This document shows, in pieces, positions 11,631 to 46,955 of a DNA stretch of 64,000 nucleotides. The notes below the pieces were generated by a model. The model made no database searches. It was not told the DNA's origin and worked only from the letters and a program-made list of their open reading frames with translations. The stretch is from Woeseiaceae bacterium (GTDB lineage Bacteria > Pseudomonadota > Gammaproteobacteria > Steroidobacterales > Woeseiaceae). Location of the stretch: positions 1,509 through 65,508 of the forward strand of contig DAORAI010000005.1 of the NCBI GenBank assembly GCA_035344075.1, written 5' to 3'. The number at the start of each line of letters is the position of its first letter. The first letter of the stretch is position 1. Position numbers and translations under genes: made by a program.

Positions 11631-12305
11631 ATGAAACTCAAAAAAATGATTAGCATCTTCGGCGCGAGCATCGTTGCCAGCCTTCTACTTGCGTCACCTG
11701 CTCAGGCGACATTGATCCTGACGTTGAGCGACGGCGAGAATACTCAGACGATCACCGATGTCGGAGACAACGGGGCAGTGCTTTTCGTTGGCTCAGTGGG
11801 CCAATGGATACTGAACGTCACGCTTGGCGTTAGCGATCCTCTGATTGGCGACTCGAACAAGGCGCGCCTGGACCTGAGTTCCCTGAATGTAATGGGCCTG
11901 TCGAATTCCGGTGGTTCGCTGACCATCAGCCTGACGAACACGGATGTCAGCGTCCCGCACGGCGATACGAACTTCTCGGTTGATCTTGGCGGCACGACTG
12001 ACGGCCAGATTTCGTTCCAGTCCTACATTGATTCGACAAATACTGCCTTTGGCACCGAAACGCTGCTTTACGACACAGGTGTATTGACGGGTGGCTCGTT
12101 TAGTTCAACGGTATATGGCGGAGCGTCAGTCACAGGGCCCTATTCGATCACAACCGTTGCGACGATTTATCATGAGCACGGACTGTCGCTGACCGGCTTC
12201 AACCACGGTGTTGAAATTCCTGAGCCAGCGGGCCTGGCTCTGCTGGGAATCGGCCTTCTCGGGCTGGGCTTCGTAATCAGGCGACGACGGTCCAGGTTGA
12301 GCTAG
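11631..12305 (+). CDS. PEP-CTERM-anchored secreted protein (exosortase substrate)
   Basis: Signal peptide 'MKLKKMISIFGASIVASLLLASPAQA'. Ser/Thr/Gly-rich beta-type body. C-terminus 'VEIPEPAGLALLGIGLLGLGFVIRRRRSRLS'. Confidence 0.9.
   Translation: MKLKKMISIFGASIVASLLLASPAQATLILTLSDGENTQTITDVGDNGAVLFVGSVGQWILNVTLGVSDPLIGDSNKARLDLSSLNVMGLSNSGGSLTISLTNTDVSVPHGDTNFSVDLGGTTDGQISFQSYIDSTNTAFGTETLLYDTGVLTGGSFSSTVYGGASVTGPYSITTVATIYHEHGLSLTGFNHGVEIPEPAGLALLGIGLLGLGFVIRRRRSRLS
12219..12305 (+). other. PEP-CTERM sorting signal
   Basis: The P-E-P codons cct gag cca lie at 12219-12227, followed by the hydrophobic helix 'AGLALLGIGLLGLGFVI' and the basic cluster 'RRRRSR'. Confidence 0.9.
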
Positions 12306-17774: not shown

Positions 17775-18649
17775 GCAAGATCCAAAAGGCACTTCAGAAG
17801 GTCACGGCTGCTGCCGGTGGTAAGGCAACGGATTCTCGAACGCGCGAGACCATCAAAACAGCAATACGCTCGGACCATGAAGCCAAGCGGTGTGCATCTT
17901 TGCCGCACAAGCAGAGGATTGAGGTTGACCTGGGATTGTTGTCGACTAGCGGTATCGCGACACTGAATGAAGGCGAGAGCGAGCTTCGCGATGAAATGAG
18001 GCGAATAAAATGGCCGATCCTCGCCAATGCATTTGGCGATCAACGCAAGGATATTCCACGCGGCAATGTCGTTATGGTGGCCAGCGCTACTTCCGGAGAG
18101 GGAAAAACATTTACGACTATCAATCTCGCGATGAGTATCGCTGCTGAGAAAGACTTTGACGTATTGCTGGTCGATGGAGATATTGCGAAATCGCATACCA
18201 GTGAATTATTTGGCCTGACAGGATTCCCAGGTGTCACGGATTATTTATTAGGTGATGTTTCGAACATTTTGGATGTCACGGTCGGCACGGACTTACCGGG
18301 CCTTAGTTTGCTGCCAGCGGGCAGGGCTGATGAGCATGCGTCGGAACTGATTGCAAGCAATAGAATGTCGGACTTGGTCACGGAGCTCAGTCAACTGTTT
18401 CCAAATACCGTGGTCCTTTTTGATTCGTCGCCGCTTCTACAAACAAATGAGTCGCAGGTCTTGTCACGCCATGTCGGCCAGGTGCTTCTCGTAGTAGCGG
18501 CAAATAAGACGCCAACTGCCGCCGTCAAAGACGCCGTTGCATTGCTTGGGCCAGACGTCGTGGTCAATGTTATTTTCAACGGGATGAAGCGACTGTTCGG
18601 GCAGAAATACAGCTTTGGAGGCTACTATGGCTACCATTACAAACGTTGA
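17771..18649 (+). CDS. epsG: Chain-length determinant tyrosine autokinase, EpsG-like (BY-kinase ATPase)
   Basis: TTG start in a TTGA overlap with the epsF stop ('LSKIQKALQK'). Walker A 'SATSGEGKTF', Walker A' 'VLLVDGD', Walker B 'VVLFDSSP'. Confidence 0.8.
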   Translation: MSKIQKALQKVTAAAGGKATDSRTRETIKTAIRSDHEAKRCASLPHKQRIEVDLGLLSTSGIATLNEGESELRDEMRRIKWPILANAFGDQRKDIPRGNVVMVASATSGEGKTFTTINLAMSIAAEKDFDVLLVDGDIAKSHTSELFGLTGFPGVTDYLLGDVSNILDVTVGTDLPGLSLLPAGRADEHASELIASNRMSDLVTELSQLFPNTVVLFDSSPLLQTNESQVLSRHVGQVLLVVAANKTPTAAVKDAVALLGPDVVVNVIFNGMKRLFGQKYSFGGYYGYHYKR

Positions 18650-20150
18650 TCGCATTCATCCAGTAAGGCCGGTTCGGACAAAGGCCCGATCCTCCTTATT
18701 CTGTCTGTTGTTAATGGTGTCGGGTTTGTACAGCGTTCCCGCGGCGGCCCAGGACTGGGAGATAGAGCCTTACATCGAGGTGATTGCGACCTATACCGAC
18801 AACCTGTACCTGCTTCAGAAAGGCTTTGAAATTTCTGACTACGTTGGACAGGTGAATCCCGGCATCAATATCGTCAGAAACGATGGCCGATTCACAACAG
18901 ATACATCGTATCGCATGCAAAATTTGTTCTTTGCAGACGACAGCGACCTTGACACGATTTTTCATCAGCTAAACTCGTCGTCGACACTCGAACTCGCGGC
19001 TGAAACGTTTTTCATTGACGTGGATGCAGCGATAGAACAATCCATATTGGACCCGACTCGGCCCATTTCCACGAGCAACGTCATTACGACGTCAAATTAC
19101 GGCGACGTAATCTACGCTGACATAAATCCATACCTGGTTCAGCGCCTCGGAAATTCAAGTGCCTATGCACGCGTCGACTATACCTGGGGCATCGGCCGTT
19201 ACGAAGATTTTGGACTGCAGACATTCAGCCGCGTCGACGATTTCGATCAGGAATCATGGCGTGCCTACCTTGGTACGGCGCAGCAGGAGACAGGTTTTGA
19301 CTGGGCGCTTACCTATGATCGCCAGTTTGTGAATTACGAGACAATTAGCGACTACAAGTTTGAACGCGCGGGCGCAATGACAGCTATTCCGCTTATGCGA
19401 AATATCCGATTGTTGCTTCTCGGTGGATTTGAAAGCGACGTATTTGTGGGAAGGGACATCGGTGGACTGGATTCCGACTATTGGGAGGTCGGGTTCAGCG
19501 TCAATTCCGGCGAAAGAAACAATTTTGAAGTTCGGGTTGGTGAGCGCTTTTTTGGCAGGTCTTACTTTGGCAATTTCGAGTATGAGGGCAATAACATTAG
19601 TGCGACCATTTCGTACACTGAAAATCCGACGACGTCTGCACTCAGTGGCCCGGGATCATTCGACGCAGATTTCTCCGTCAGCGATCTCGACCCGATTTTT
19701 GACGAAGATCTTGCCGGTGATGAGCTGATCATAGTACCGATACGTGCAGAGGCATACATTTCGAAGATGCTCAGTGCTCGAATCGAAGTCAGTGGCGCGC
19801 GGAGCTTGCTGTTTCTCGCCTACGCAGACGAGGATCGCGAGTTTATTGATTTGGTTGATGGGCTCGCCGGGCAGGAAGATGGACAGGATTCATTGACGCT
19901 TGGCTATCGATACGAGCTGGGTTCACGTACTGAACTTGAATTCAGTGTGGCCACCGGGCGCTACGACTATCCGTTCACCGATGTGCACAGTGACGTCGTC
20001 CAAATTGTGCTGGGTGTTTCGAGACGACTTGGCAGCCAGACCGATCTGCGCGCATCCATTCGCCGTTCGGAGCAGGAAATTGACAACGTCTCGGGTTTTG
20101 GAGACTACGTCGAGAATGCGATCGAGGTCGGGCTGGTGAGACGGTTTTGA
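18627..20150 (+). CDS. PEP-CTERM system-associated outer-membrane beta-barrel protein
   Basis: ATG 18627 lies 5 nt after GGAGG. Signal peptide '...LLLMVSGLYSVPAAA'. Alternating beta-strand pattern and a C-terminal aromatic residue ('VGLVRRF'). Confidence 0.7.
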   Translation: MATITNVDRIHPVRPVRTKARSSLFCLLLMVSGLYSVPAAAQDWEIEPYIEVIATYTDNLYLLQKGFEISDYVGQVNPGINIVRNDGRFTTDTSYRMQNLFFADDSDLDTIFHQLNSSSTLELAAETFFIDVDAAIEQSILDPTRPISTSNVITTSNYGDVIYADINPYLVQRLGNSSAYARVDYTWGIGRYEDFGLQTFSRVDDFDQESWRAYLGTAQQETGFDWALTYDRQFVNYETISDYKFERAGAMTAIPLMRNIRLLLLGGFESDVFVGRDIGGLDSDYWEVGFSVNSGERNNFEVRVGERFFGRSYFGNFEYEGNNISATISYTENPTTSALSGPGSFDADFSVSDLDPIFDEDLAGDELIIVPIRAEAYISKMLSARIEVSGARSLLFLAYADEDREFIDLVDGLAGQEDGQDSLTLGYRYELGSRTELEFSVATGRYDYPFTDVHSDVVQIVLGVSRRLGSQTDLRASIRRSEQEIDNVSGFGDYVENAIEVGLVRRF

Positions 20151-25098: not shown

Positions 25099-27003
25099 AT
25101 GTGTGGATTCGTTGGAATTGTCGATTTACAGGGACAGCGCGAGATTGACCCGGATTTGCTGCGGAGAATGAACGATTCGCAGTCACATCGCGGCCCGGAT
25201 GAACAGGGCGTTCACCTGTCGCCAGGCGTCGGGCTTGGCCACAGACGACTGTCGATCATTGACCTCTCGTCGGGCCAGCAACCGCTTTACAACGAGGATC
25301 GTTCAGTCGTCGTCGTCTACAACGGCGAAATATACAATCATGCGAGCCTGAGGGAAGAGTTACAGCAGCACGGCCATGTTTTTCGTACACATTGCGACAC
25401 TGAAGTTATTGTGCATGCCTGGGAGCAGTGGGGCGAGAGCGCCGTAACCCGTTTCAACGGAATGTTCTCGTTCGCATTGTGGGATGCCAACAAGTCCGAG
25501 TTGTTCCTTGCGCGCGACAGGCTGGGCATCAAACCGCTTTACTATGCGGTACTGCCAAATGACCAGCTGATCTTCGGCACCGAACTGAAAGCGCTATTGC
25601 TGCATCCGGATTTGCCGCGGGAGCTCAACGGTACAGCGGTTGAGGAATACTTCGCCTTTGGCTACGTTCCGGAACCTAAAACGATCCTCAAACATGCGTG
25701 CAAGCTGCTCCCGGCACATACACTTAGATTCAGGCGTGGGAAAAAAGCCCCGGACCAAAAGGAATACTGGGACGTACCGTTTGGCACCGCGCCAGCAGTA
25801 TCGTTTCAAGACGCACAAGAGGAGCTTGTCGAACGCCTACGCGCATCGGTGCAAAGACGCCTGATGGCGGAAGTTCCGTTGGGGGCATTTTTATCGGGCG
25901 GCGTTGATTCCAGTGCCGTCGTGGCAATGATGTCGGGCCTCTCTGAGTCGAAGGTGAACACCTGCTCAATTTCTTTTGGCGATCCTCGCTACAATGAATC
26001 CCAGTTTGCAGAGCAGGTCGCGAAGCAATACGGAACGAACCACTTTGTCGAGAGTGTGCAGGCAGATGACTTTGGCCTGATCGATACGCTTGCCGCGAAC
26101 TACGACGAGCCGTTTGCCGACAGCTCGGCAATGCCGACCTACAGGGTCTGTCAGCTGGCCCGAAAGCATGTGACTGTGGCCCTGTCGGGCGATGGTGGCG
26201 ATGAGAACTTCGCCGGCTACCGGCGATACCGCTGGCACGCTTATGAGGAAAAGGTAAGGTCTTTGTTGCCCCAGGCCATTCGCGGGCCATTGTTCGGAAT
26301 GCTGGGTTCGGTCTATCCGAAACTGGATTGGGCACCCAAGTACTTGCGCGCGAAAACGACCTTTCAGGCACTGGCGAGAGACAGTCTGGCCGGGTTTCTG
26401 GATAGTGTATCCGTCGTATCAGATGAGAATCGCCGCCTGCTGTTCAGCAAGGCGTTCAAAGATTCACTGCAGGGCTACAATGCAGTGGAAGTGTTCCGGC
26501 ATTACGCAAACAAGGCACCGGTCGACGATGCACTGTCGCTCGTGCAATACCTCGATCTCAAGACCTATTTGCCGGGCGATATCCTGACCAAAGTCGACCG
26601 GGCAAGCATGGCGCATTCTCTCGAAGTTCGTGTGCCGATATTGGACCACACCTTCGTAGAGTGGGTGTCGAGTCTCAATCCCGACTGGAAGCTGCATGGG
26701 CGAGAGGGCAAACATATATTCAAACAGGCCATGAGAAAGCACTTGCCGGACGATATTCTGTTCAGGGAAAAAATGGGATTCGCCGTGCCGTTGGCGAGCT
26801 GGTTTCGAGGCCCATTGAAAGAACGGATCAGAACATTGGCCGACGCGCCTGGACTTGGCCAGCTTGGTCTTTTCGACAGCAATGCAATCAATACAATGGT
26901 GCAGCATCACCAGGCGGGATTGCGAGATCACAGCGCTATTATCTGGTCGTTGGTCATGTTTGAAGCGTCGATGCGAAACCTTGGCCTGTCAAGCAGCACC
27001 TGA
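25099..27003 (+). CDS. Asparagine-synthase-type (glutamine-hydrolysing) amidotransferase, exosortase-A-associated
   Basis: 'MCGFVGIV' carries the N-terminal Cys nucleophile. 'RGPD', 'HRRLSIID', PP-loop 'FLSGGVDSSAV'. 634 aa. Confidence 0.85.
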   Translation: MCGFVGIVDLQGQREIDPDLLRRMNDSQSHRGPDEQGVHLSPGVGLGHRRLSIIDLSSGQQPLYNEDRSVVVVYNGEIYNHASLREELQQHGHVFRTHCDTEVIVHAWEQWGESAVTRFNGMFSFALWDANKSELFLARDRLGIKPLYYAVLPNDQLIFGTELKALLLHPDLPRELNGTAVEEYFAFGYVPEPKTILKHACKLLPAHTLRFRRGKKAPDQKEYWDVPFGTAPAVSFQDAQEELVERLRASVQRRLMAEVPLGAFLSGGVDSSAVVAMMSGLSESKVNTCSISFGDPRYNESQFAEQVAKQYGTNHFVESVQADDFGLIDTLAANYDEPFADSSAMPTYRVCQLARKHVTVALSGDGGDENFAGYRRYRWHAYEEKVRSLLPQAIRGPLFGMLGSVYPKLDWAPKYLRAKTTFQALARDSLAGFLDSVSVVSDENRRLLFSKAFKDSLQGYNAVEVFRHYANKAPVDDALSLVQYLDLKTYLPGDILTKVDRASMAHSLEVRVPILDHTFVEWVSSLNPDWKLHGREGKHIFKQAMRKHLPDDILFREKMGFAVPLASWFRGPLKERIRTLADAPGLGQLGLFDSNAINTMVQHHQAGLRDHSAIIWSLVMFEASMRNLGLSSST

Positions 27004-30372: not shown

Positions 30373-31554
30373 TTAGTGCTGATAGCGAAAAAACCAGGTT
30401 GCATGGCGACCGTCCTCGGACGCATGCAGCCAAAAGCCATTGTTAACGGGATCGTATCTGAATCGACCAAAAACATAGCTGCTATCCGTTGGTCGCACGT
30501 CGGGGCGAATGGTTTCCCACTGCTCGGCAGATACGTCGTAGATCCAGATGGTGCCGCCGAAGTAGACTGCCAGAACATCATTCTTCGTGTCGTAAGCCAA
30601 TCCCGGGCCGTTGTTGGATTCCCCATTCGGGCCACTGCCTTTCGGCTGCAAAGATTGCCATCGACGACCGGGGATGTCGAATTCCCATAGAGTATGGTTG
30701 ACCTCGTAATTGCCGCCAAAGTAATACAGCTTGCTGTGTGTGGGATCGTACTCAAGCGTGCCTTCAATGCTCCACGGCGGATTACCTCGCGTTGAAAGTT
30801 TCCGCCAGGTGTTTTTCTTTGGGTCATACGACCAGGTTTCCTGCAACACTTTGGCAAACAGGATCCCATCGCGACTGGAATATGCTGACGCACCGGACCC
30901 GGCAACCTCATTTGGGGATGGGTTTTTGCCGTTGTATAGAAAGGTCCATGCTGCATCGGCGAAATTGAATACCCAGGTATCCATGCAGCGGTTACACCAT
31001 GGTGTTTGCGAGTCACCCCACGTGTAGCCGCCCCATGCCACGGCGCCGTAGCCGTTGACGTACTCCAGTTGATCATAGGAATGGCGTGACATTGGTCTTG
31101 CGTCGGCGATTCCTTCGCCGGCTGGATGGAATAGTGCACCCGGGTAGTTTTCATTGTCATAGTTATTATACGCGCCCTGGTCAGCGCCGTTATACGGCGG
31201 ATCAGTCACCACGTCGGCCGGATACATTTCACGCCATTTCAATGCAGCGATATCGAAGCACCAGACTTCATTGCCCGAATAGTTATAGTGTCCGCCACCG
31301 AATATGCAGAACTGGTGCGCGTCGGGGTCGTACCACCCACCGGAGTACGCCAAAATACCGAGCGGCGCCGTAACGCCTCCCAGGTCCACGAGCATCCACT
31401 TCCTGTCAGGAAGGTCATTAAGAAGGTCTGTTGGCCGATGTTCTGCAACGGCCGGCCCGACGTTCGTGAGCAGCAGCAGCACGGTCCATATCGTGAACCG
31501 GTAACTGATCAGAGTCTTGCTGTTAATGGTCGCCAACTTCGTAGTGAATCGCAT
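30373..31554 (-). CDS. Secreted beta-propeller (Kelch-like) protein
   Basis: Signal peptide '...WTVLLLLTNVGPAVA'. Repeated W/Y-containing blades. Motifs 'AYSGG', 'FGGGHYN' and 'SRHSYDQ' are shared with the N-terminal domain of the 38825-40735 protein. Confidence 0.6.
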   Translation of the reverse strand: MRFTTKLATINSKTLISYRFTIWTVLLLLTNVGPAVAEHRPTDLLNDLPDRKWMLVDLGGVTAPLGILAYSGGWYDPDAHQFCIFGGGHYNYSGNEVWCFDIAALKWREMYPADVVTDPPYNGADQGAYNNYDNENYPGALFHPAGEGIADARPMSRHSYDQLEYVNGYGAVAWGGYTWGDSQTPWCNRCMDTWVFNFADAAWTFLYNGKNPSPNEVAGSGASAYSSRDGILFAKVLQETWSYDPKKNTWRKLSTRGNPPWSIEGTLEYDPTHSKLYYFGGNYEVNHTLWEFDIPGRRWQSLQPKGSGPNGESNNGPGLAYDTKNDVLAVYFGGTIWIYDVSAEQWETIRPDVRPTDSSYVFGRFRYDPVNNGFWLHASEDGRHATWFFRYQH

Positions 31555-33391
31555 GAGCCTTAAACCAAAGTTCCAGAGCCATTAGAACCCAAATAAACTC
31601 GCCATAGTAGTGAGCATTCTCTGAACGATGCAAACGAATCAACTCGTCAAGGTACTCGCGTCGGACAATGTTGCGTTTGCCAATGTCCGAAAGACAATCA
31701 TAGGCGAGTTCCTGCAACGGCTGATGCGATTTCATCCACAAGCCGAATGGCAATCCGAATCCATGCTTGGTCTTGCGAAGGACCTCTCGAGGCAAATAGG
31801 ATCGCATCGAGTGTTTAAAGAAGTGCCGCAGGCGAAATCGGCTAATCTTCATGCCTGCGGGAACGCGATTCGAGAACTCCACGATGTCATCGTCGAGGAA
31901 AGGGAACAGCACGTCTACGCCCGCGAGATCGCACATCGATACAACCTTTCGCAGGTCGTTATCGGCAAGCGTGAACTTCCAGTCAAGTTGTAGCATCCTG
32001 TTGAGCATTGTCGATGCACGTGACGCGAAATACGTTTCCCGTAATGCTTCTACTGGAGACTGCACTCGAATTGAATTCAGAAAATCCGGATGTAATATGT
32101 CGCCAACAGGTGTTCGGTTAAAGTAGTTGTAGGTTTCCAGACGTTCTGGCATAGGCACCTTGGCTTGTTGCACATAACTTTTTAGCTTCCGTGTTGGCAG
32201 GAAGCGGTCGGCGCCCTTCCAACCCAATGCCAATGGCTCGATCACACCGTTTCTGATAATGTGCGGAATTCGATCGTAGATCGAAAAAATTTGTTGGGTT
32301 ACGTAACGCACGTTGCCCCCGAACAATTCGTCTCCGCCGTCACCGCCATACAGGGTTTTAATGCCGTTGCTGCGCGCCATGCGTGCGCAAAAGTACACCG
32401 GAACAACTGATGAATTGCCAAACGGCTCGTCGTACGCCTTCGCAATGTCAGGCAGAATATCGACAACATCCGATGGAGTGACGATGTACTCGTTGTGCTT
32501 TGTTTGAAAATGGTCTGCCGTTATTTTCGCAAAGCTTGTTTCATCGTAGCCTTCCTCCTGAAAGCCGATCGTGAATGTTTTCGCGGGTGGATTCAGTTCC
32601 GACATTACGCCGGATATGGTTGAACTGTCGATCCCACCGCTCAGGAAACATCCGCTGTCTTCATCAGGGGCATGTCTTCGGATCGAGTTGCGCATGAGGT
32701 CATGCAGTTCTTCTTCAAGCAGGCGGCGATCGGCGGGACCGCTGTCAACGAACTCGGGAGACCAGTATTGTCGCTGTGTCAGGTTGCCATCCGCGTAAAC
32801 GATGTACTCACCCGGCCGAAGTTTCTGTTGTTGCTCGAAAATCGATCGAGGGCTGGGAACCATATGAAAATACAGGTAGTCGAATACGGCCTGGTCACTG
32901 ATGCGAGCAGGGAACAGGTTGTCATGATGCAATTGACCTGCGTTGGTTCCGAACACAAGCCCGACCTCTGGACGGCAAGAGAAAAACATCTGTGCGATTC
33001 CCATCCGGTCAATGGCGAGGATGGTGCGCTGTTCGTGGCTGTCGATAAGCGCAAGCGAAAATGTGCCTCGCAAATAACCCAGCATATCGGTGCCGTATCG
33101 GCGACAGGCGCTTGCAATCGATGTGGCGAAGCCTGATTTCCGGCTTTGCTCTTCAAGTTCATCGTTTGCCCAATAGGCTCTGCCGCAAATTGCACCGACA
33201 AGGCCATCGCCACGAATGAGGCATTGTCCTGCCGCGGGCCCGGATATTGCTATTCCGGATGACTCCTGCGCCTCGATGAGTGGTGGCGATGATGCATCCG
33301 TGCCGGGGCGGCCGGACATGCTGCTGAGGCTTTCACGAATGCCCTTTGACGGCGAACTGGTCGTGGCAAGGCCGAGAAACGTGTTTTTCAT
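31523..33391 (-). CDS. Asparagine-synthase-family protein lacking the N-terminal Cys nucleophile
   Basis: The first ATG is at 33391 (the ORF also opens at TTG 33451). PP-loop 'FLSGGIDSSTI' is intact. The glutaminase-like domain is present ('LRGTFSLALIDSHEQRTILAIDRMGIAQMFF'), but no start option gives Met-Cys. Confidence 0.75.
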   Translation of the reverse strand: MKNTFLGLATTSSPSKGIRESLSSMSGRPGTDASSPPLIEAQESSGIAISGPAAGQCLIRGDGLVGAICGRAYWANDELEEQSRKSGFATSIASACRRYGTDMLGYLRGTFSLALIDSHEQRTILAIDRMGIAQMFFSCRPEVGLVFGTNAGQLHHDNLFPARISDQAVFDYLYFHMVPSPRSIFEQQQKLRPGEYIVYADGNLTQRQYWSPEFVDSGPADRRLLEEELHDLMRNSIRRHAPDEDSGCFLSGGIDSSTISGVMSELNPPAKTFTIGFQEEGYDETSFAKITADHFQTKHNEYIVTPSDVVDILPDIAKAYDEPFGNSSVVPVYFCARMARSNGIKTLYGGDGGDELFGGNVRYVTQQIFSIYDRIPHIIRNGVIEPLALGWKGADRFLPTRKLKSYVQQAKVPMPERLETYNYFNRTPVGDILHPDFLNSIRVQSPVEALRETYFASRASTMLNRMLQLDWKFTLADNDLRKVVSMCDLAGVDVLFPFLDDDIVEFSNRVPAGMKISRFRLRHFFKHSMRSYLPREVLRKTKHGFGLPFGLWMKSHQPLQELAYDCLSDIGKRNIVRREYLDELIRLHRSENAHYYGEFIWVLMALELWFKAHAIHYEVGDH

Positions 33392-33804
33392 ATCATCTAA
33401 CCTAAAAAATGCAGTCGAATGCTCCGGCTCGATGCGCAAATTCGCAATCAATTAAGTCACAGATTTGACAATAATGTGATGCGACGAAGGCGATCGGGTT
33501 TGGCTTCCAAATACAGGTTGGTGAGACGTCACCGTGTAAATGGCGTCTCGGGATAGTCCAAGGTTACCGGAAAATCAATGGCTTCAGTGCATTTTCCCAA
33601 ATTGTCTTTAACGATTGAAAAATCGCAGAAGTGTGAACCGGTCGACGTTATTGGAGGCCGCGTCAGCCATAGCGTTCAGCCGATTTTCATGTCTGTATTT
33701 GGAGACAGTTGCAGCATGTTTTTTTTTGTTTATAGTCGTTTTACTGCTTACATAATCGAAGTTGCGCCGAGAACCTTTTAGCGCGTATTTCGAGAAGTGG
33801 ACAG

Positions 33805-33891
33805 CACTGTTTAAAGGCAAACTCATCGAAAGGTGGGGACGCAAAACTACCGGTCTAAGGGAGTCAACCTAAGACGGCGGAGTTGCCAGTG
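33805..33891 (+). promoter_or_regulatory. c-di-GMP class I (GEMM-I) riboswitch aptamer
   Basis: CACTG-tttaaag-GCAAAC[CTCATC-GAAA-GGTGGG]GACGC-AAA-ACT(A)CCG GTCTAAGG-gagtcaa-CCTAAGAC(GG)CGG AGT-tgc-CAGTG. This gives three helices and a GAAA tetraloop. The conserved 'GGCAAAC', 'GGGACGCAAA' and 'GCGGAGTTGCC' strings are near-identical to the V. cholerae Vc2 aptamer as I recall it. Confidence 0.8.
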
Positions 33892-34077
33892 ACGGCCGAT
33901 GCTATCCGTACTTTAACCCGGTGCATCGCCAAGCCTGCCTTCACGTCGTCTAAACAGGATGGTCATAAGCCCACGAGCAGGGCGCTGTCATTCTGTAATG
34001 GAATTGATCGTACTGCCCAATTGGACCGCTTAAGAACAGAACTCAGGCACTGACTTGTGGTTCTCTGGATACACTGG

Positions 34078-36840
34078 ATGCAAAAAATGAAATTGGTGGA
34101 TCTCAAACAACTGGTCTTCTCGTTTAGCGCCATTGTCTGGCTGTTTGCGATTTGTGAATCGGTCAACGCCGCAGACATTGCGTCGGTTTCGATAGATAGC
34201 GAATCGAGCAGCGCCCAGAACAATGTACATGTCACTTTTGGCCACGTCTTCGCTCAGGGCGAGGTCGTGGATCCGGCGGTCCTTGGTGCACGACTGGCGG
34301 GCGGTGCAGTAGTTCCGCTGCAAGTTGATGCCAAAGCAACTCACGCCGACGGCTCGTTGCGACACGCTGTCCTGACAACCGTGCTACCCACCGTCGCTGC
34401 GAATTCGCAGAACGATCTGACACTACAGACGCCGGGCTCAAACGCGACCGGCGCTACAGTTACTCTCGCAAGTTTACTTGCCACGAGTTTTGATTCCGAT
34501 GTATCTGTCAATATTGGTGGCACCGTTTATTCGGCTTCGGCACGAGATTTGCTGAGCAGTGGAACACCCGACAGCTGGTTGTCGGGGCCACTGGTTTCAG
34601 AGTGGCTTGTCGCCGGGCCCATGCGTACGAATGCAGGTTCTCCGCACGCTCATCTAACGGCTCGTTTTCATGTACGTGCCTATGCCGGGCTGGGTGCCGT
34701 TCGTGTGTCGGTTACGCTGGAAAACAACTGGTCGCACGTCAGCGGTCCGCAGAATTTCAACTATGACGCGACGGTCAGCGTGCAGGGTCGTGGCATCGTA
34801 CTGTCGCAAGACAACGTTACTCACTATCGACAGGCGCGATGGCGTCGCGTTTTCTGGTGGGGCGATGAACCGCAGGTCGAAGTTGCGCACGACACCGGTT
34901 ACATGGAGCGTATGGGTGTTGTACCGACCTATGATCCGAGACTTCGCATTCCGCAGAGCGTCCTGAGCGGCATGGCATCGGACTGGAGTGGACGCAAAAC
35001 GGAATTGATGGCTTCCGGGCTTATTTATGAATACATGCCTGACGGTGGAGGGCGGCCAGATATCGCTCCGCTGCCGCGCTGGACAGCCCGATACCTGATG
35101 TCGCAGGACGCCCGGGCAAAAACGGCGGTTCTGGGCACCGGCGAACAAGCGGGCAGTTTCGGCATTCACTATCGCGACAAGGATACGGATCTGCCGATTT
35201 CACTCGATACCTACCCGAACATCAGCATTATGGGCCAGAGCAGCGCGTTCCCGTCATGCGGTGGCAGTTGCAGCACGCCCTATACGCCCGATATTGCGCA
35301 TCAACCATCGATGTCATTCGTTCCCTATCTTGTGACCGGCGACTATTTTCACCTTGAGGAGCTTCAGTTCTGGGCCAACTGGAATTTGTTCTACTGGGGA
35401 AATCATGGCGGAAGCCAGGGCTTGATGGTCAATGACCAGATTCGTGCTCAGGCCTGGGGACTGCGGACGCTTGGACATGCCGCATTTATTACACCCGACA
35501 ACCATCCGCTGAAGGCGTACTTCCTGTCCAAGCTCGACAACAATCTTGACTGGTACGAGAACAACATAGTCAGCAATCCGCCAACTCCGCTCGGTTACCT
35601 GCTGAATACGCCTGATATCGGCCTGGACAATACCTTCGCAACCTGGATGGACGACTTTTTCACCTGGACGGTCGGTCATCTTGTAAACCTTGGATTCGAC
35701 AATGCCGAGGGAATTTTTCAGTACAAGGCACGCTTTCCCGTAGGTCGCATGACCGATCCGGGTTATTGCTGGATTCTTGCACCGACCTACTGGACCCGGG
35801 CACGTGATGCTCAGACGGGCCAGCCTTTTTCCGATTGGACTGACTACAAAGTCGCTGTCGTGCGCTCGTGGGACAGCAGTTCCGTGGGCCCGAGCTTCTC
35901 GTCCTGGACAATTCCGCCAAACATGTCGAGCAGTCAGGAAGACCCACTCATCAATGCGGCCTGCAACAGCAGCGAGATGGCCGATATACTTGGAATGCAG
36001 CGCAGCAACATGATCGGCGGGTCATGGAGTCATGAAGGCTATACGTCGAACATGCAGCCGGCTGTTGCCGTTGCGGCGGAACGACGGGTAACGAATGGCG
36101 AGGCCGCCTGGAACCTGTTTGACAGCCGCGCCGTGGTACCGGATTCAGGTAATTACGATTACAACGTGTCGCCGCAATGGGCAATCGTACCGGGCAATAT
36201 TGACCTCGGTACACCTGGCCCGGGCAACCAGCTGCCAACGGTATCGTTGTCGGCGAATCCGAGATCTATTGCCTCCGGTGGTACGACGACATTGAGCTGG
36301 TCGTCTTCCGACGCGGATTCCTGCCAGGCCTCAGGCGCCTGGAGTGGCAGCAAGTCGTTTTCTGGAACACAGTCAATCGGAGGGCTGACAAGCGACAGCA
36401 CCTTCACGCTGGTTTGCAGCAATTCCCAAGGCAGTGACACGGCAAATGTAACAGTCACGATCCAGGCACCTGGAGCGCCGACAGTTTCGTTTTCGAGCAG
36501 TCTGAGTTCGGTATCTCAGGGCTCCAATGTAACGCTGACCTGGTCATCGCAAAATACCGACTCCTGCTCGGCGTCGGGCGCATGGTCAGGCAACAAGGCG
36601 ACCTCCGGAAGCGAGTCAGTGGGTCCGCTGAGCCAGAACAGCAGTTTCACACTGACCTGTTCGGGTTCCGGAGGTAACGTCAGCGAGAGCCTGAGTGTCA
36701 GCGTCACTGCCACTCCGCCGGATGCGGGCAATCCCGAAGAAGAAGGCGGTGGAGCGATTGGTTACTGGAGTCTGTTGTTTTATCTGTTGGCCGTGTGGCG
36801 TCGCGTACATGGCAGACGGTGTAATGAGGTTTCAGTTTGA
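34078..36840 (+). CDS. Large secreted protein: ~700-aa unassigned (possibly glycan-active) domain + 2 two-Cys Ig-like modules + GlyGly-CTERM-like tail
   Basis: Signal peptide 'MQKMKLVDLKQLVFSFSAIVWLFAICESVNA' (starts at 34057/34078/34087 are possible). The body has no motif I can name. The tail is 'EEEGGGAIGYWSLLFYLLAVWRRVHGRR'. Confidence 0.8.
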   Translation: MQKMKLVDLKQLVFSFSAIVWLFAICESVNAADIASVSIDSESSSAQNNVHVTFGHVFAQGEVVDPAVLGARLAGGAVVPLQVDAKATHADGSLRHAVLTTVLPTVAANSQNDLTLQTPGSNATGATVTLASLLATSFDSDVSVNIGGTVYSASARDLLSSGTPDSWLSGPLVSEWLVAGPMRTNAGSPHAHLTARFHVRAYAGLGAVRVSVTLENNWSHVSGPQNFNYDATVSVQGRGIVLSQDNVTHYRQARWRRVFWWGDEPQVEVAHDTGYMERMGVVPTYDPRLRIPQSVLSGMASDWSGRKTELMASGLIYEYMPDGGGRPDIAPLPRWTARYLMSQDARAKTAVLGTGEQAGSFGIHYRDKDTDLPISLDTYPNISIMGQSSAFPSCGGSCSTPYTPDIAHQPSMSFVPYLVTGDYFHLEELQFWANWNLFYWGNHGGSQGLMVNDQIRAQAWGLRTLGHAAFITPDNHPLKAYFLSKLDNNLDWYENNIVSNPPTPLGYLLNTPDIGLDNTFATWMDDFFTWTVGHLVNLGFDNAEGIFQYKARFPVGRMTDPGYCWILAPTYWTRARDAQTGQPFSDWTDYKVAVVRSWDSSSVGPSFSSWTIPPNMSSSQEDPLINAACNSSEMADILGMQRSNMIGGSWSHEGYTSNMQPAVAVAAERRVTNGEAAWNLFDSRAVVPDSGNYDYNVSPQWAIVPGNIDLGTPGPGNQLPTVSLSANPRSIASGGTTTLSWSSSDADSCQASGAWSGSKSFSGTQSIGGLTSDSTFTLVCSNSQGSDTANVTVTIQAPGAPTVSFSSSLSSVSQGSNVTLTWSSQNTDSCSASGAWSGNKATSGSESVGPLSQNSSFTLTCSGSGGNVSESLSVSVTATPPDAGNPEEEGGGAIGYWSLLFYLLAVWRRVHGRRCNEVSV
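36238..36711 (+). repeat. Coding repeat: two ~80-aa two-Cys Ig-like modules
   Basis: 'TTTLSWSSSDADSCQASGAWSGSKSFSGTQSIGGLTSDSTFTLVCSNSQG' and 'NVTLTWSSQNTDSCSASGAWSGNKATSGSESVGPLSQNSSFTLTCSGSGG'. Confidence 0.8.
36745..36840 (+). other. GlyGly-CTERM-like sorting tail
   Basis: GGG, then hydrophobic 'AIGYWSLLFYLLAVW', then basic 'RRVHGRR'. Confidence 0.6.
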
Positions 36841-38828
36841 TGCGTAACAACATCGCAAGATGGAAGAGGTGGTCGGTCCTCGCGTTGATTCCGACCGTAT
36901 TGTCTGGCTGCCTGAGCGAAGAGAAAGCATCGGTCGAAGACAATCCTGAAGCGCCGGTCGTGTCGATCAACGCGGTACCCTCGACAGTTGACCCGGGCGA
37001 TACAACGACATTGAGCTGGGACGCCACAGGCGCAGACAGCTGTACTGCATCGGGCGCGTGGAGCGGCAGCCGTACATTGACGGGCACAGAGACATCCGGT
37101 CCCTTGCAATCGAGCAGCCAATTCACGCTGACCTGTACGGGGCCCGGTGGCAGCACGAGTCAAACGGCAGCGGTAACGGTCAGTGGTGGGGCTGCGCAAC
37201 CGACGCTGACGTTTACGGCATCGCCCAGCGTAGTCGCGCAGGGAGCCGCGGCGACACTTCAATGGACCACCACGAACGTCGATAGCTGCACCGCATCGGG
37301 TGACTGGACAGGAAACAAGGGAACGTCTGGGTCGGAGTCGACGGGAAGCCTGAATAGCAACGCGACCTATACGCTCGATTGCGTCGGTCCGGGTGGCACT
37401 ATTGGCAACACGCGAACGGTAACAGTGGCGGCCGGGTCTGCCGGAATTTTCGGCAGTGTTGACAGCAGCCTGGTAAGCAGAACGCTATCGAACAGCGTCT
37501 ACCTGTACGCGGGAGCCGTTACTCCCGACGACTTTGACGGCGATTCGGGTGATCCCTTGCTAAGTGCCACAGTCCGTCAGGACAGCGGAGCCTGTACGTT
37601 CGGCTACGACGCAGGCTCGCTGGCGGCAGGCGAATACACGCTGGCCTTCGTAGCTGGTAGCTCCAATGACGACCCGCAAACTGACGAGGTGATCGACTTT
37701 GTTGGCACGCAGACGGTTACTGTCGGCGCGAGTCCGACAGTTGCGAACTTCGACGCCTCCAATATTATTCGCGTCGGCCCAGGCCGCACTTATCAAACCG
37801 TTGCAGCCGCGGCAAATGCGGCTCAAGACGGTGATGTCGTTGAAATTGACGCCGGCGTTTACGCAGCGGATGTTGCGAGCTGGTTTCAGGACAACCTCAC
37901 GCTTCGCGGCGTCGGCGGGTACGCGCACCTGCGCGCAGATGGCGTCAATGCGCAAGGGAAGGCCATCTGGGTAATCGCGGGCAACGACGTGGTTGTTGAG
38001 AATATCGAGTTCTCCGAGATCTCAGTGCCGGATCAGAATGGCGCTGGAATAAGGCATGACGGGCGGAATCTTGTCGTGTGTAACGGTTACTTCCATGACA
38101 GCGAGGAAGGCATTCTGGGTGGTGCCGGAAACGTGCTCGTGGAGTACTCGGAATTCGACAATAACGGTTTTGGTGATGGCTTCAGCCACAACATGTACAT
38201 ACTTGATGCAGACCGGTTCACATTGCGTCATAGCTATATGCACCATGCCCGCATTGGCCACAACGTCAAAAGCCGAGCTCGCGAAAACTACATCTTGTAC
38301 AACAGGATAATGGACGAGTCGAATGGCACGTCCAGTTATGCTGTCGATATACCGAATGGTGGCTTGAGCTACCTGATTGGCAACCTGATGCAGCAGGGGC
38401 CAAATACGGACAACTCGGTCATCGTCAACTATGGCACCGAAGGCCTGTCGGGCGGCCGTACGCACAACCTGTATCTCGTGAACAATACGCTGGTCGATGA
38501 CTACGGCGGCACGTTCTTGCAGGCCGCTGGCGGTACCGCACTGATAGAACTGATCAACAACCTGTTCGTTGGCGGTGGCAACATTATCAGTGGGCCGCAA
38601 GCAAACATGACGACAAACCTGCAAACAACTGCTCCGGAGTTTGTCGCGATCGATTCTTACAATTACCGCCTTACCGGAAACTCGCCTGCCCGCGATGCAG
38701 GCAGCACACCGGGCACCGGCAACGGCTTTGATCTGCACCCTGAGTTTCAGTACCTGCACAAGAGTGACAGGGAATCGCGCCCGGTGGAGGGCGCAATCGA
38801 TGTCGGCGCGTATGAGTTTACGCCATGA
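36840..38828 (+). CDS. Lipoprotein: 2 two-Cys Ig-like modules + beta-sandwich + right-handed parallel beta-helix (polysaccharide lyase/epimerase-like) domain
   Basis: TGATG overlap with the upstream gene. Lipobox 'VLSGC'. The beta-helix part, 'DGDVVEIDAGVYA...LTLRGVGG...AIWVI.GNDVVVENIEFS...NGAGIRHDG.NL.V..GYFHDSEEGIL...EYSEFDNNGFGDGFSHNMYI...HHARIGHNVKSRA', is paralogous to 45870-46955. Confidence 0.8.
   Translation: MRNNIARWKRWSVLALIPTVLSGCLSEEKASVEDNPEAPVVSINAVPSTVDPGDTTTLSWDATGADSCTASGAWSGSRTLTGTETSGPLQSSSQFTLTCTGPGGSTSQTAAVTVSGGAAQPTLTFTASPSVVAQGAAATLQWTTTNVDSCTASGDWTGNKGTSGSESTGSLNSNATYTLDCVGPGGTIGNTRTVTVAAGSAGIFGSVDSSLVSRTLSNSVYLYAGAVTPDDFDGDSGDPLLSATVRQDSGACTFGYDAGSLAAGEYTLAFVAGSSNDDPQTDEVIDFVGTQTVTVGASPTVANFDASNIIRVGPGRTYQTVAAAANAAQDGDVVEIDAGVYAADVASWFQDNLTLRGVGGYAHLRADGVNAQGKAIWVIAGNDVVVENIEFSEISVPDQNGAGIRHDGRNLVVCNGYFHDSEEGILGGAGNVLVEYSEFDNNGFGDGFSHNMYILDADRFTLRHSYMHHARIGHNVKSRARENYILYNRIMDESNGTSSYAVDIPNGGLSYLIGNLMQQGPNTDNSVIVNYGTEGLSGGRTHNLYLVNNTLVDDYGGTFLQAAGGTALIELINNLFVGGGNIISGPQANMTTNLQTTAPEFVAIDSYNYRLTGNSPARDAGSTPGTGNGFDLHPEFQYLHKSDRESRPVEGAIDVGAYEFTP
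36957..37433 (+). repeat. Coding repeat: two two-Cys Ig-like modules
   Basis: 'TTTLSWDATGADSCTASGAWSGSRTLTGTETSGPLQSSSQFTLTCTGPGG' and 'AATLQWTTTNVDSCTASGDWTGNKGTSGSESTGSLNSNATYTLDCVGPGG'. Confidence 0.8.
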
Positions 38829-40735
38829 AACAAGGCCGTACGCTAAAGTTGAACCAAGAGGTTGACCCAATGAATAGAACAGTCTTTGAACGTCATAAGG
38901 ATATGATGACAGAGAAACCGCCAGGCAACAGCCTGCCGTTGACCGCTTGCCTGCTGCTGGCCGGTATCTTTTCCGCGGCGGTTGCCAACGCCCAGGGCAA
39001 TGAAACCAGTCCGTTTATCGACAGTATCGCTGTTGGGTCAGCCTGGCAGAATGTCACGGCGAATGAGGGCAATAACCTCAGAATCGACTATCAGACCGTA
39101 GCGTATTCGGGTGGTGGCACCAAGAATGGCCGGACTGTCGTCTTCGGCGGCGGACATAACAATGGTTTGAATGACGCCGTCGCGTTTCTTGATTGGCGCA
39201 ATTTCGAGACCGTCGGCTGGACAGAAGAGTTGGTATCGACGGCCGACCATATCGGTGTCGCCGATAATGACTGGGGCCAAATCGGCCAGTATCTGAACGC
39301 AAACTACAATGGCGCGACCCCGGGAGGAATCTCCGACGATCGTGGCCTGGTGGCGTTGTCTCGACACACCTATGATCAGATAGTCGTACGATCGGATCAC
39401 TTCTATATTTTCTCCGGCATCCTGCCGTATGACAATCCCGGGCAACCCAATGAACCCTGGGATCATGTAGAGGGCGATATCTGGCGCTATGACTTCGGCT
39501 CCGGCTGGAGCTTTATTGGCGCGCCGCTGGCAAACCAGTATGGCGGGCATGCGGCAGCGGCTGAAGATACATTGACCGGCAATATCTGGGTGCACGACGG
39601 TGCCGGGCTGCGTCTTTTCAATACGACGTCGGAGACGGTCAGTTCGCCGATCGCGTCTTTGAGTTCGCAAGCGGAGGAGTCGTCTTTGAATTTTAATCCG
39701 GACAAAGGCGCACAGGGCACCTTGTTCGGGTCCGGACGTTTCGCAGGTAGTAGCTGGCACGAGTACGACATTGCAACGGGCCAGCAGCGCAACATGGGTG
39801 CTGTTCCCGGCAATGCTGAAAGCACGTATATCATCTACGTTGACGCCTCATTCGGATCGAATTACGGCACCTATTTCGCGATCGTTCCGCAGAACGGGAC
39901 TCTCCGGCGCTGGAATGGGTCCGGTTGGGATACGGTTGCAACCGGTGGTCCAACAGGTAACGGGCACGTTTACGGCCGCGCCGGGTTTGAACCCGTCCAT
40001 CAGGTGTTCTACTGGATACACAATTCGTACAGTGGCAATAATGCCTGGCAAACACGCGTGGTTCGTCCGTATCCATTCAATGGCAGCGCTGAGCCGCCTC
40101 CGACGGTCGCATTGTCTGCGGACCCGGAGTCCGTGCCAGCACAGGGGACGACCACTTTGACGTGGAGCAGCACGAACGCCAATAGTTGCAATGCGTCCGG
40201 AGACTGGAGCGGCGCCAAACCATTGTCAGGCAGCGCATTTTTCGGGCCATTGAACTCGGACAAGACATATTCACTGGCCTGTAGCGGCAGTGGCGGAACC
40301 TCTTCAGATACGGTGACTGTCACGATTCAGGGTACGCAGCCTGCTCCGACTGTCAGTATTTCGGCCAATCCGTCATCTGTCGATGCAGGTGGATTTGCCG
40401 TTGTGGACTGGACCTCGTCAAACGCCAGCAGTTGCTCGGCATTCGGTGACTGGTCCGGAAACAAGCCGCTGCAGGGCAGCGAGTCGGTTGGCCCACTGTC
40501 GCAGGATTCGACTTTCCGAATGACGTGTTCGGGCACGGGCGGCGATGCAACCAATGCAGCGACCATTACTGTGAATACTCCTGCGCCGCCGCCGCCACCA
40601 CCACCGCCCGTTGACGATAATCCGACGACCGACCCCCAGAACCAAATCGGTGGTGGTTCCTTCGGTTTGCTGTTCTTGCTGATGCTTGCGACCCTGGGGC
40701 TTTTCAGGCAGACGGTGATCGATCGCCGACGATAG
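38825..40735 (+). CDS. Secreted beta-propeller-like domain + 2 two-Cys Ig-like modules + poly-Pro linker + GlyGly-CTERM-like tail
   Basis: ATGA overlap with the upstream gene (internal ATG 38870 is an alternative start). Signal peptide '...LTACLLLAGIFSAAVANA'. 'AYSGGG', 'FGGGHNN' and 'SRHTYDQ' are shared with 30373-31554. The tail is 'GGGSFGLLFLLMLATLGLFRQTVIDRRR'. Confidence 0.8.
   Translation: MKQGRTLKLNQEVDPMNRTVFERHKDMMTEKPPGNSLPLTACLLLAGIFSAAVANAQGNETSPFIDSIAVGSAWQNVTANEGNNLRIDYQTVAYSGGGTKNGRTVVFGGGHNNGLNDAVAFLDWRNFETVGWTEELVSTADHIGVADNDWGQIGQYLNANYNGATPGGISDDRGLVALSRHTYDQIVVRSDHFYIFSGILPYDNPGQPNEPWDHVEGDIWRYDFGSGWSFIGAPLANQYGGHAAAAEDTLTGNIWVHDGAGLRLFNTTSETVSSPIASLSSQAEESSLNFNPDKGAQGTLFGSGRFAGSSWHEYDIATGQQRNMGAVPGNAESTYIIYVDASFGSNYGTYFAIVPQNGTLRRWNGSGWDTVATGGPTGNGHVYGRAGFEPVHQVFYWIHNSYSGNNAWQTRVVRPYPFNGSAEPPPTVALSADPESVPAQGTTTLTWSSTNANSCNASGDWSGAKPLSGSAFFGPLNSDKTYSLACSGSGGTSSDTVTVTIQGTQPAPTVSISANPSSVDAGGFAVVDWTSSNASSCSAFGDWSGNKPLQGSESVGPLSQDSTFRMTCSGTGGDATNAATITVNTPAPPPPPPPPVDDNPTTDPQNQIGGGSFGLLFLLMLATLGLFRQTVIDRRR
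40103..40580 (+). repeat. Coding repeat: two two-Cys Ig-like modules
   Basis: 'TTTLTWSSTNANSCNASGDWSGAKPLSGSAFFGPLNSDKTYSLACSGSGG' and 'FAVVDWTSSNASSCSAFGDWSGNKPLQGSESVGPLSQDSTFRMTCSGTGG'. Confidence 0.8.
40649..40735 (+). other. GlyGly-CTERM-like sorting tail
   Basis: The ggt ggt ggt codons at 40649-40657 are followed by 'SFGLLFLLMLATLGLF' and a terminal 'RRR'. The tail is preceded by a P8 linker. Confidence 0.65.
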
Positions 40736-45869: not shown

Positions 45870-46955
45870 ATGAACAGAACGCTTTTGCTCCTGGCATCAC
45901 TAGTTGCGGAATCGGCGTATTCCGCCGTATTGCTCGTCGGTCCGAACATGCCGTATGAATTACCGAGTGAGGCCGCGATGGTCGCAGAGGATGGGGATAT
46001 TGTCGAGATTGAGGCGACTGTCTATGCCGGCGACGCTGCCGTTTGGACACAAAACGACCTGGTGATTCGGGGTGTTGGCGGCAGGCCTCACATCAGGGCC
46101 GATGGGGCCGCTGCCGAGGGCAAAGCGATATGGGTGATCAAAGGCGACAACACGGTCATCGAGAACATTGAGATGTCGGGCGCGACCGTAGCCGACGCAA
46201 ATGGTGCCGGTATTCGACTTGAGGGCACGAATCTTACGGTCCGAGGCTGCTATTTTCACGACAATGAAAACGGGATTTTGACGGGCCCGAATCCGGACAG
46301 TGAGGTATTGATTGAGTACTCTGAATTCGCGAATAACGGTTACGGCGATGGGTACTCCCATAATATGTATATAGGCCGTGTGGCAAAGTTTACTTTGCAG
46401 TTCAGCTACGTCCACCATGCCCGTATCGGGCACCAGGTAAAAAGCCGGGCAGTGAAGAACGAAATTCGCTTCAACCGGCTGATGGATGAACGAAGCGGTA
46501 CGTCAAGCTACATCATCGATCTTCCCGATCCGGGCGAGGCCTTCGTCGTCGGCAACGAAATGCAGCAGGGTCCGGATGCGGACAACTGGGCCATGGTGCA
46601 CTCGGCACAGGATCTGCAACTGGTGAACAATACGCTCGTGAACGATCGTAGCAGCGGTGTGTTCGTCACGTTGTCGGGCCCGAGTCGATCAAGCGTCCTG
46701 CAGAATAATTTGTTTATAGGCACCGGCAGGTTCGAGGCGGAGGGCGCAGAAATGCGGGGCAACCTGGTGATTGACGACGGGAAGCTCGCAGACCGTCGGG
46801 GGTTCGACTACAGGCTAACGGCTGCTTCGCCAGCGATCGACACCGGAACACCCGTTGATCCGACCGCACAATTGCTCTGGGAGTACGAGCACGTCGCCAG
46901 CCGCAAAGAGAGGGAAGACGGTGGACAGGTCGACGTTGGCGCACACTCCTACTGA
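45870..46955 (+). CDS. Secreted right-handed parallel beta-helix protein (paralogue of the C-terminal domain of 36840-38828)
   Basis: Signal peptide 'MNRTLLLLASLVAESAYS'. 'DGDIVEIEATVYAGD...LVIRGVGGRPHIRADGAAAEGKAIWVIKGDNTVIENIEMS...NGAGIRLEGTNLTVRGCYFHDNENGIL...EYSEFANNGYGDGYSHNMYI...HHARIGHQVKSRA'. Confidence 0.8.
   Translation: MNRTLLLLASLVAESAYSAVLLVGPNMPYELPSEAAMVAEDGDIVEIEATVYAGDAAVWTQNDLVIRGVGGRPHIRADGAAAEGKAIWVIKGDNTVIENIEMSGATVADANGAGIRLEGTNLTVRGCYFHDNENGILTGPNPDSEVLIEYSEFANNGYGDGYSHNMYIGRVAKFTLQFSYVHHARIGHQVKSRAVKNEIRFNRLMDERSGTSSYIIDLPDPGEAFVVGNEMQQGPDADNWAMVHSAQDLQLVNNTLVNDRSSGVFVTLSGPSRSSVLQNNLFIGTGRFEAEGAEMRGNLVIDDGKLADRRGFDYRLTAASPAIDTGTPVDPTAQLLWEYEHVASRKEREDGGQVDVGAHSY

Follow-up and report, generated by a model that had tools for sequence, protein, structure and literature searches.

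A predicted class I cyclic di-GMP riboswitch ahead of a lyase-like operon in an exosortase-A exopolysaccharide island of a Woeseiaceae bacterium

Structures of class I cyclic di-GMP (c-di-GMP) aptamers, also termed GEMM-I, have been described for Vc2 and Vc1 of Vibrio cholerae (Smith et al. 2009; Kulshina et al. 2009; both cited in PMC6140456). An RNA of the same kind is reported here at positions 33805-33891 of a 64,000-nucleotide (nt) stretch of a Woeseiaceae bacterium genome (assembly GCA_035344075.1, contig DAORAI010000005.1, positions 1,509 to 65,508), hereafter the window. On the sequence evidence it is very probably a functional class I c-di-GMP riboswitch aptamer, situated in the ~340-nt 5' leader of a lyase-like operon (34087-40735) within an XrtA/PEP-CTERM island. 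It has in common with Vc2 and Vc1 a three-helix architecture, a GNRA tetraloop on helix P2, a receptor in helix P3, equivalents of G20, A47 and C92, the GGCAAA...GACGCAAA core, and a location in the 5' untranslated region of a gammaproteobacterial transcript. It differs from them in the genes that lie downstream, which are tfoY or gbpA in V. cholerae and encode lyase-like surface proteins here, in the ~195 nt of leader which follow the aptamer without a recognisable expression platform, and in a P1 helix of only 4-5 bp.

Riboswitches of this type have also been found among exopolysaccharide (EPS) genes. In Methylophaga nitratireducenticrescens GP59, four c-di-GMP riboswitches (Ribo4-7) lie within 18 kb, each beside a PEP-CTERM/VPLPA-CTERM gene, among genes for EPS synthesis and export; the theme of GEMM-I riboswitches in a PEP-CTERM/EPS cluster is therefore already published (PMC12530212). 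The two loci share a GEMM-type RNA, an exosortase-type EPS cluster, a marine gammaproteobacterial host and a position upstream of secreted proteins with C-terminal sorting signals. In GP59, however, there are four riboswitches, each placed before small PEP-CTERM/VPLPA-CTERM proteins, whereas the window has a single one before a three-gene operon for large enzyme-like proteins that carry GlyGly-CTERM tails or a lipobox. Bc1 of Bacillus thuringiensis (PMC11218506) likewise combines a class I aptamer with an expression platform of unusual length; its platform is reported to include two typical rho-independent terminators, which the leader in the window lacks.

The aptamer is identified by a match to the Rfam family RF01051 (c-di-GMP-I) at window positions 33806-33890 on the forward strand, which reaches 77.4 bits where the gathering score is 35 (E 1.7e-13, Rfam cmscan), extends over the full length of the model (positions 1-87 of 87) and is the sole hit at the gathering threshold in the whole 64-kb window. 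Such a match is far beyond chance. A class I c-di-GMP (GEMM-I) aptamer had been read at this place by a first-pass annotation made from the letters of the sequence, for which a blank covariance-model search was to count as refutation; the search, run over the whole window, gave this significant RF01051 hit instead, and the assignment is further borne out by orthologous aptamers and their covariation. The parts of the aptamer are as follows.

33805-33891 (+): c-di-GMP-I (GEMM-I) aptamer, from the RF01051 match and covariation across nine orthologous aptamers
33805-33809 (CACTG) with 33887-33891 (CAGTG): helix P1
33817-33818 with 33841-33842, and 33822-33827 with 33832-33837: helix P2, capped by GAAA at 33828-33831
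33845-33855 with 33873-33884: helix P3
33854-33859 (UCUAAG) with 33870-33874 (UAAGA): tetraloop receptor

The strings and coordinates first proposed for the three helices were all recovered on re-reading the sequence. P2 reads GC-AAA-CUCAUC[GAAA]GGUGGG-GAC-GC, and P3 follows the path GTCTAAGG...CCTAAGAC in DNA letters, or GUCUAAGG...CCUAAGAC in RNA letters. The GNRA tetraloop on P2 and a matching receptor in P3 are both present, aligning to the consensus CUAAg...uAuGa. Some details of the earlier description required adjustment. The junction given as AAA is AA in the Rfam structure, in which AACU pairs with AGUU. The CTAAG strings, described as receptor-like, fall in GUCUAAG/UAAGAC, which is the tetraloop-receptor motif and not a plain helix, UCUAAG/UAAGA being treated by Rfam as the tetraloop receptor. 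A likeness to Vc2 described as nearly base for base holds for the conserved core and not for the full length, where about 64 of 87 positions, mostly in that core, are identical to the Vc2 sequence. Finally, the spacer that contains the aptamer is 695 nt long (33392-34086) when bounded by the ortholog-supported starts of the flanking genes (ATG 33391 on the reverse strand upstream and ATG 34087 downstream), rather than the 626 bp that mechanical open reading frame (ORF) limits had suggested; its GC content is 47.1%, against 54.3% for the window. The RNA itself is an ordinary, canonical member of RF01051, which any Rfam-based annotation pipeline would call.

Conservation was assessed by comparing loci with homologues of gene 1, the first gene of the operon, at 80 genomic and 80 metagenomic loci together with five further close relatives. 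Orthologous aptamers were found upstream of the gene 1 orthologue in eight other genomes or metagenome contigs, making nine with the window. Three of the eight were found with Rfam, two of them in soil metagenome-assembled genomes (MAGs).

L003, Woeseiaceae MAG: 81% protein identity to gene 1, Rfam score 82.9 bits
L011, soil 'Gammaproteobacteria' MAG: 39% protein identity to gene 1, Rfam score 86.5 bits
L069, soil 'Gammaproteobacteria' MAG: 37% protein identity to gene 1, Rfam score 74.1 bits

The others (L084, L163, L164, L165 and L167) were detected with a covariance model built from the Rfam-found aptamers, under which the window aptamer scores 90.9 bits. In all nine loci the aptamer lies on the gene 1 strand, 100-210 nt upstream of the start codon, and both the tetraloop and its receptor are kept. 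The alignment of the nine was fitted to the model; 91.4% of its cells pair, and both sides have changed in 9 of the 22 pairs; the covariation score was reached by none of 500 shuffles, and controls with slid partners were 29-47% paired. Compensatory changes occur in P1, P2 and P3. P1, which lies outside the Rfam model, itself covaries (A-U, U-A and G-C), being ACUG/CAGU in the Woeseiaceae group, GCUG/CGGC in L165 and UCUG/CAGA in L011 and L069.

The window and L003 are syntenic throughout. In L011 and L069 the position of the aptamer holds despite protein identities of 37-39%, the absence of genes 2 and 3 and a different upstream neighbour. There, only gene 1 follows the riboswitch, beside WecB, and it is for this reason that gene 1 is regarded as the conserved riboswitch target. 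Beyond WecB in these two loci (L011 10003-13454; L069 9935-13386) are a GAF-histidine kinase and a sigma-54 response regulator which resemble PrsK/PrsR, so that an RNA input and a two-component input are adjacent. Some 150 homologous loci from more distant sources, among them Burkholderiales, Polyangium and Anaerolineales, were searched, and none has the riboswitch.

Three bases of the window, G33816, A33843 and C33886, are taken to be the ligand contacts and to correspond to G20, A47 and C92 in Vc2 numbering, A47 being the base that intercalates. All three fall at invariant positions of the Rfam consensus, and the assignment was made by aligning the aptamer with that consensus and with Vc2 as numbered in PMC6140456. 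G20 and C92 recognise the two guanines of c-di-GMP, G-alpha being bound by G20 and G-beta by C92, while riboswitches for cyclic GMP-AMP (cGAMP) have an A at position 20 (PMC6140456). The G20 equivalent is a G in all nine orthologous aptamers, within AAAGGCAAA or AAGGGCAAA. Because G and not A fills the specificity position throughout, the sequence points to c-di-GMP, rather than cGAMP, as the predicted ligand.

Two alternatives concern the identity of the aptamer. That it merely resembles GEMM-I by chance gains something only from the general caveat that covariance-model hits are predictions, and it can practically be dismissed in view of an E-value of 1.7e-13, a score more than twice the gathering score, and the recurrence of the aptamer, with covariation, in independent orthologous loci. 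It is also very improbable that the aptamer senses 3'3'-cGAMP in the manner of GEMM-Ib, or is bispecific. The GEMM-I and GEMM-Ib folds are near-identical, and the Rfam scan suppressed one weaker match of the same clan that overlapped this one; the best clan member is nevertheless c-di-GMP-I, and cGAMP-selective aptamers carry an A (PMC6140456) where all nine aptamers of this group have the specificity base G.

The genes that follow the riboswitch are read as one operon because neighbouring genes overlap at their stop and start codons.

34087-40735 (+): three-gene operon with overlapping stop/start codons
34087-36840 (+): gene 1 (917 aa), with a signal peptide, a PL26-like beta-barrel plus helical domain, two Ig-like repeats and a GlyGly-CTERM tail
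36840-38828 (+): gene 2 (662 aa), probable lipoprotein (LSGC) with two Ig-like repeats, an extra beta domain and a right-handed beta-helix
38825-40735 (+): gene 3 (up to 636 aa, start uncertain), with a Kelch-like beta-propeller, two Ig-like repeats, a Pro-rich linker and a GlyGly-CTERM tail
about 36220-36700, 36950-37420 and 40090-40560: Ig-like repeat regions
36700-36840 (gene 1) and 40600-40735 (gene 3): GlyGly-CTERM tails

The start of gene 1 at ATG 34087 is conserved in L003. Its AlphaFold2 model (pLDDT 82.8, pTM 0.73) was compared with the PDB using Foldseek, and the top 13 matches are all to the PL26 exo-rhamnogalacturonan lyase PcRGLX, with E-values down to 5e-9 and global TM scores of 0.27-0.30. 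A match to PF19501 at 19.4 bits, below the cutoff of 22.1, agrees with the fold match, and PF19501 appears in the precomputed annotation of several gene 1 homologues. Gene 2 overlaps the stop codon of gene 1 by 1 nt, or by 4 nt if it starts at TTG 36837, and its product is identical to the 662-aa protein P0121. In its AlphaFold2 model (pLDDT 84.5), the beta-helix best matches polysaccharide lyases in Foldseek, including the RbmB lyase of V. cholerae (9OZL; TMt 0.46, E 1.9e-4), the PL6 alginate lyases 7O84, 7O7A and 7O78, 7W1C, chondroitinase B and the K1 capsule lyase; gene 2 orthologues give weak PF13229 hits. Gene 3 overlaps the stop codon of gene 2. Its N-terminal domain is paralogous to a Kelch-propeller protein encoded at 30373-31554 on the reverse strand (25% identity over 346 aa, E 5e-10).

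Each of the three proteins carries two tandem copies of one Ig-like repeat of ~75 aa, in which a pair of Cys residues and the motif SC.ASG.WSG are conserved. The repeat had no match among Pfam models, and Pfam returned nothing for the gene 2 and gene 3 proteins. Sequence searches of the PDB gave nothing for genes 1 and 3 and chance-level hits (E 0.2 or above) for gene 2. The likeness to RbmB (PDB 9OZL) and to the PL6 and PL26 lyases lies in the predicted folds, a beta-helix for gene 2 and a PL26-like fold for gene 1, and in the placing of both genes inside an EPS locus. The operon proteins differ from these enzymes in having no detectable sequence similarity to any solved structure, with low global TM scores, and in their tandem Ig-like repeats and membrane anchors, which the known lyases lack.

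When the isolated C-terminal tails were searched, GlyGly-CTERM (TIGR03501) was matched at 19.3 bits in gene 1 and 21.8 bits in gene 3, above a cutoff of 15.5, and PEP-CTERM (TIGR02595) gave no hit in either tail even at E<=10. Judged by these sequences, the gene 1 and gene 3 products are not obvious XrtA substrates, and the operon products look like proteins sorted by another system. No rhombosortase match was found among the scanned ORFs of the window. Two C-terminal sorting systems, GlyGly-CTERM and PEP-CTERM, appear to serve this one EPS locus. From the structural models, the products are likely to be surface-anchored enzymes that process polysaccharide, and the matrix remodelling first suggested for the locus fits well with downstream genes predicted to fold like polysaccharide lyases.

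The spacer also contains promoter-like elements upstream of the aptamer and a long leader downstream of it.

33690-33707 (no strand): palindrome TGTCT-N8-AGACA, abutting the -35 box; candidate transcription-factor operator
33709-33736 (+): promoter-like element, TTGCAG at 33709-33714, a 16-nt spacer and TATAGT at 33731-33736
33892-34086 (+): downstream leader of 195 nt, taken as the expression platform
33894-33930: post-aptamer hairpin GGCCGAUGC...GCAUCGCC
33935-33942: semi-conserved CUGCCUUC

The TATAGT and TTGCAG boxes are kept in all loci of the Woeseiaceae group, L166 (a relative with 59% protein identity) included, and place the predicted transcription start site near 33743, ~60 nt upstream of P1. 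A consensus scan also gave an overlapping alternative promoter, TTTATA-16-CATAAT at 33729-33756, which is less well conserved. The palindrome is present in the window, L003, L084, L163, L165 (where it is degenerate) and L167; being conserved and placed at the promoter, it hints at a protein regulator of the operon besides the RNA switch. Hairpins directly 3' of P1 recur in L084, L163 and L167. L165 is the sole leader of the nine with a terminator-like hairpin, AAUCGCA-CGGAA-UGCGAUU followed by UGGGUUUUU (~6942-6975), some 110 nt past the aptamer; different relatives may therefore use different expression platforms.

By homology with the known aptamers, c-di-GMP would be clamped between G33816, A33843 and C33886, while the GAAA tetraloop of P2 would dock on the P3 receptor, UCUAAG/UAAGA. 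Ligand binding would close the short helix P1 (CACUG/CAGUG), and this closure would alter the folding of the 195-nt downstream leader and so change expression of the operon. As the leader lacks an intrinsic terminator, the switch would most probably act on translation initiation and/or through Rho-dependent termination. Several results weigh against this reading of the element as a riboswitch acting on the operon, or against parts of it. Of two relatives with 59% protein identity to gene 1, L166 shows no GEMM-I signal (6325-7000) while keeping the operon, its synteny and the promoter boxes, and L004, whose contig is short, shows none in its ~620 nt of upstream sequence (1-621); the riboswitch is thus dispensable for the operon, and must have been gained or lost within the lineage. 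A degenerate aptamer in L166, considered because GEMM-like strings were visible by eye, was rejected when both our own model and Rfam returned blanks even at E<=10. No intrinsic terminator was found by a consensus scan of 33300-34300, and in a relaxed search for a hairpin and U-tract, seven of the nine leaders had no U-run of at least 4. Sequestration of the Shine-Dalgarno (SD) sequence was tried and rejected, since accessibility of the ribosome-binding site (RBS) showed no consistent shift between free and aptamer-enforced partition-function folds at eight loci. Anti-P1/anti-RBS pairings were likewise discarded, the best duplexes never beating shuffles and their positions not being conserved. 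The RNAalifold consensus for the 80 nt after the aptamer is weak (-2.2 kcal/mol), comprising a partly covarying outer stem and a 3-bp CAG/CUG pairing. The lyase assignments, moreover, rest on folds of low TM score (0.27-0.46) and a sub-threshold Pfam hit, and the direction of control is a guess. In addition, the minimum free energy of the whole leader has a z-score of -0.15, making it no more structured than shuffled sequence. In the window alone, CACUGG (34072-34077), beside a weak SD, is complementary to CCAGUG (33886-33891); this pairing was rejected as a general mechanism because L003 lacks it.

EPS lyases and hydrolases encoded within the locus of their polymer, such as AlgL, PelA, PslG and rbmB in the rbm/vps cluster, are generally co-expressed with the synthesis genes. 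By analogy with these, there is a slight lean, a weak inference, towards a switch that is ON at high c-di-GMP. The opposite arrangement, in which high c-di-GMP represses the lyase-like operon and a fall in c-di-GMP frees matrix-degrading enzymes for dispersal, is a serious contender, if a somewhat less than even one. The well-studied GEMM-I riboswitches Vc2/tfoY and Cd1/flgB are OFF switches, gene 2 resembles the V. cholerae matrix lyase RbmB and the PL6 lyases, and the folding, consensus-fold and duplex tests favour neither direction. Against it stand the usual co-expression of in-locus lyases and the CCAGUG/CACUGG pairing beside the SD, which would give ON logic in the window and is not conserved in L003. 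It is quite improbable, on the other hand, that the aptamer is no cis-regulator at all and is instead a c-di-GMP-binding RNA that stands alone or acts in trans (a sponge), a relic in decay, or a control element of the divergent AsnB-like gene. In favour of this, no expression platform could be defined by folding, duplex or terminator tests, and L166 and L004 run the same operon without a riboswitch. However, its orientation and distance from gene 1 are conserved in nine loci with varied neighbourhoods; the ligand-contact and tertiary-contact motifs are all intact, with compensatory changes, as would not be expected of a decaying element; the AsnB-like gene is encoded on the strand opposite the aptamer, and the upstream gene of L069 is co-directional; and no terminator follows the aptamer to release a short RNA. 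A riboswitch aptamer acting in cis on the lyase-like operon remains the preferred reading.

The AsnB-like gene in question is asparagine-synthase-like, lies divergently at 31523-33391 on the reverse strand and bounds the riboswitch spacer on the left. It matches PF00733 at 257 bits and TIGR03108 at 276 bits, the latter below the cutoff of 817, with a weak match to the glutamine-amidotransferase domain, and it is a paralogue of the XrtA amidotransferase encoded at 25099-27003. It is syntenic in L003, L163, L165, L166 and L167, and its pairing with the riboswitch operon is kept in all close relatives. Being on the opposite strand to the aptamer, it is not a riboswitch target.

The wider setting had been described in the first-pass annotation as an exosortase-A EPS island with PrsK at its left edge. 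Both statements are upheld by NCBIfam models, those for XrtA, PrsK, PrsT and the EPS genes scoring above cutoff and PrsK (TIGR02916) reaching 626 bits. The island comprises the following genes.

78-1904: PrsK (TIGR02916), cut by the left edge, 626 bits
3581-4714: FemAB-like protein (TIGR03019), 434 bits
11577-12305: PEP-CTERM protein, sorting domain TIGR02595 at 22.8 bits (cutoff 16)
12510-15359: PrsT (TIGR02917), 582 bits
15427-16047: export protein (TIGR03027), 237 bits
16152-17774: chain-length determinant (TIGR03007), 498 bits
17717-18649: Tyr kinase, 210 bits, just under the cutoff of 231
18615-20150: outer-membrane protein, 197 bits
20147-21103: deacetylase (TIGR03006), 423 bits
21119-22321: stp1 glycosyltransferase (TIGR03087), 502 bits
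22216-23931: XrtA fused to EpsI (TIGR03109), 298 bits
23906-25093: stp2 glycosyltransferase (TIGR03088), 472 bits
25099-27003: XrtA amidotransferase (TIGR03108), 1038 bits
40801-42138 (-): O-ligase (TIGR03097), 531 bits

Sugar-nucleotide genes continue on the right-hand side, and the XrtA amidotransferase has an identical copy in the MAG GCA_002338605.1. This copy, the synteny with L003 and a close gene 1 homologue recorded as Woeseiaceae make a Woeseiaceae-like gammaproteobacterium the most likely source. A 1252-aa protein with six 'choice-of-anchor Z' PGGG repeats (7680-11438, +; NF058597, 549 bits) adjoins the small PEP-CTERM protein at 11577-12305. The island also holds, further to the right, another right-handed beta-helix protein (45870-46955, +; PF13229, 53.6 bits) and a Calx-beta/LamG-domain protein (61572-63644, +), both of which may likewise be associated with the matrix.

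The riboswitch itself is routine; its value lies in acting as a functional pointer to the three uncharacterised protein families of the operon. There are more than 370 genomic relatives of gene 1 and thousands of gene 2, almost all carrying the label 'hypothetical'. The riboswitch ties these three large unannotated families to c-di-GMP, biofilm physiology and XrtA exopolysaccharide, and this link suggests that they are matrix-processing enzymes. In the literature, no papers were found on GlyGly-CTERM proteins with a riboswitch or GEMM-I with a polysaccharide lyase, on a riboswitch target that is a lyase-like operon of unannotated families, on GlyGly-CTERM enzymes inside an XrtA island under a riboswitch, or on a long terminator-less leader such as the present one. 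The terminator-less 195-nt leader offers a reasonable test case for non-canonical GEMM-I expression platforms.

A broader and doubtful proposal is that c-di-GMP, read by RNA, gates a dedicated set of surface-tethered PL26-/RbmB-like EPS lyases of unannotated families in Woeseiaceae-like sediment bacteria and in a soil gammaproteobacterial lineage, such that the riboswitch, and not PrsK/PrsR, would time the maturation or dispersal of an XrtA-type matrix, through a long terminator-less GEMM-I platform of a kind not yet described, such as one working by Rho or by long-range control of translation. In marine sediments, Woeseiaceae rank among the most abundant bacteria. A defined c-di-GMP output in an uncultured member of this family would provide a testable handle on how the matrix is built and remodelled, and a clue to the regulation of the XrtA-type matrix in Woeseiaceae-like bacteria.

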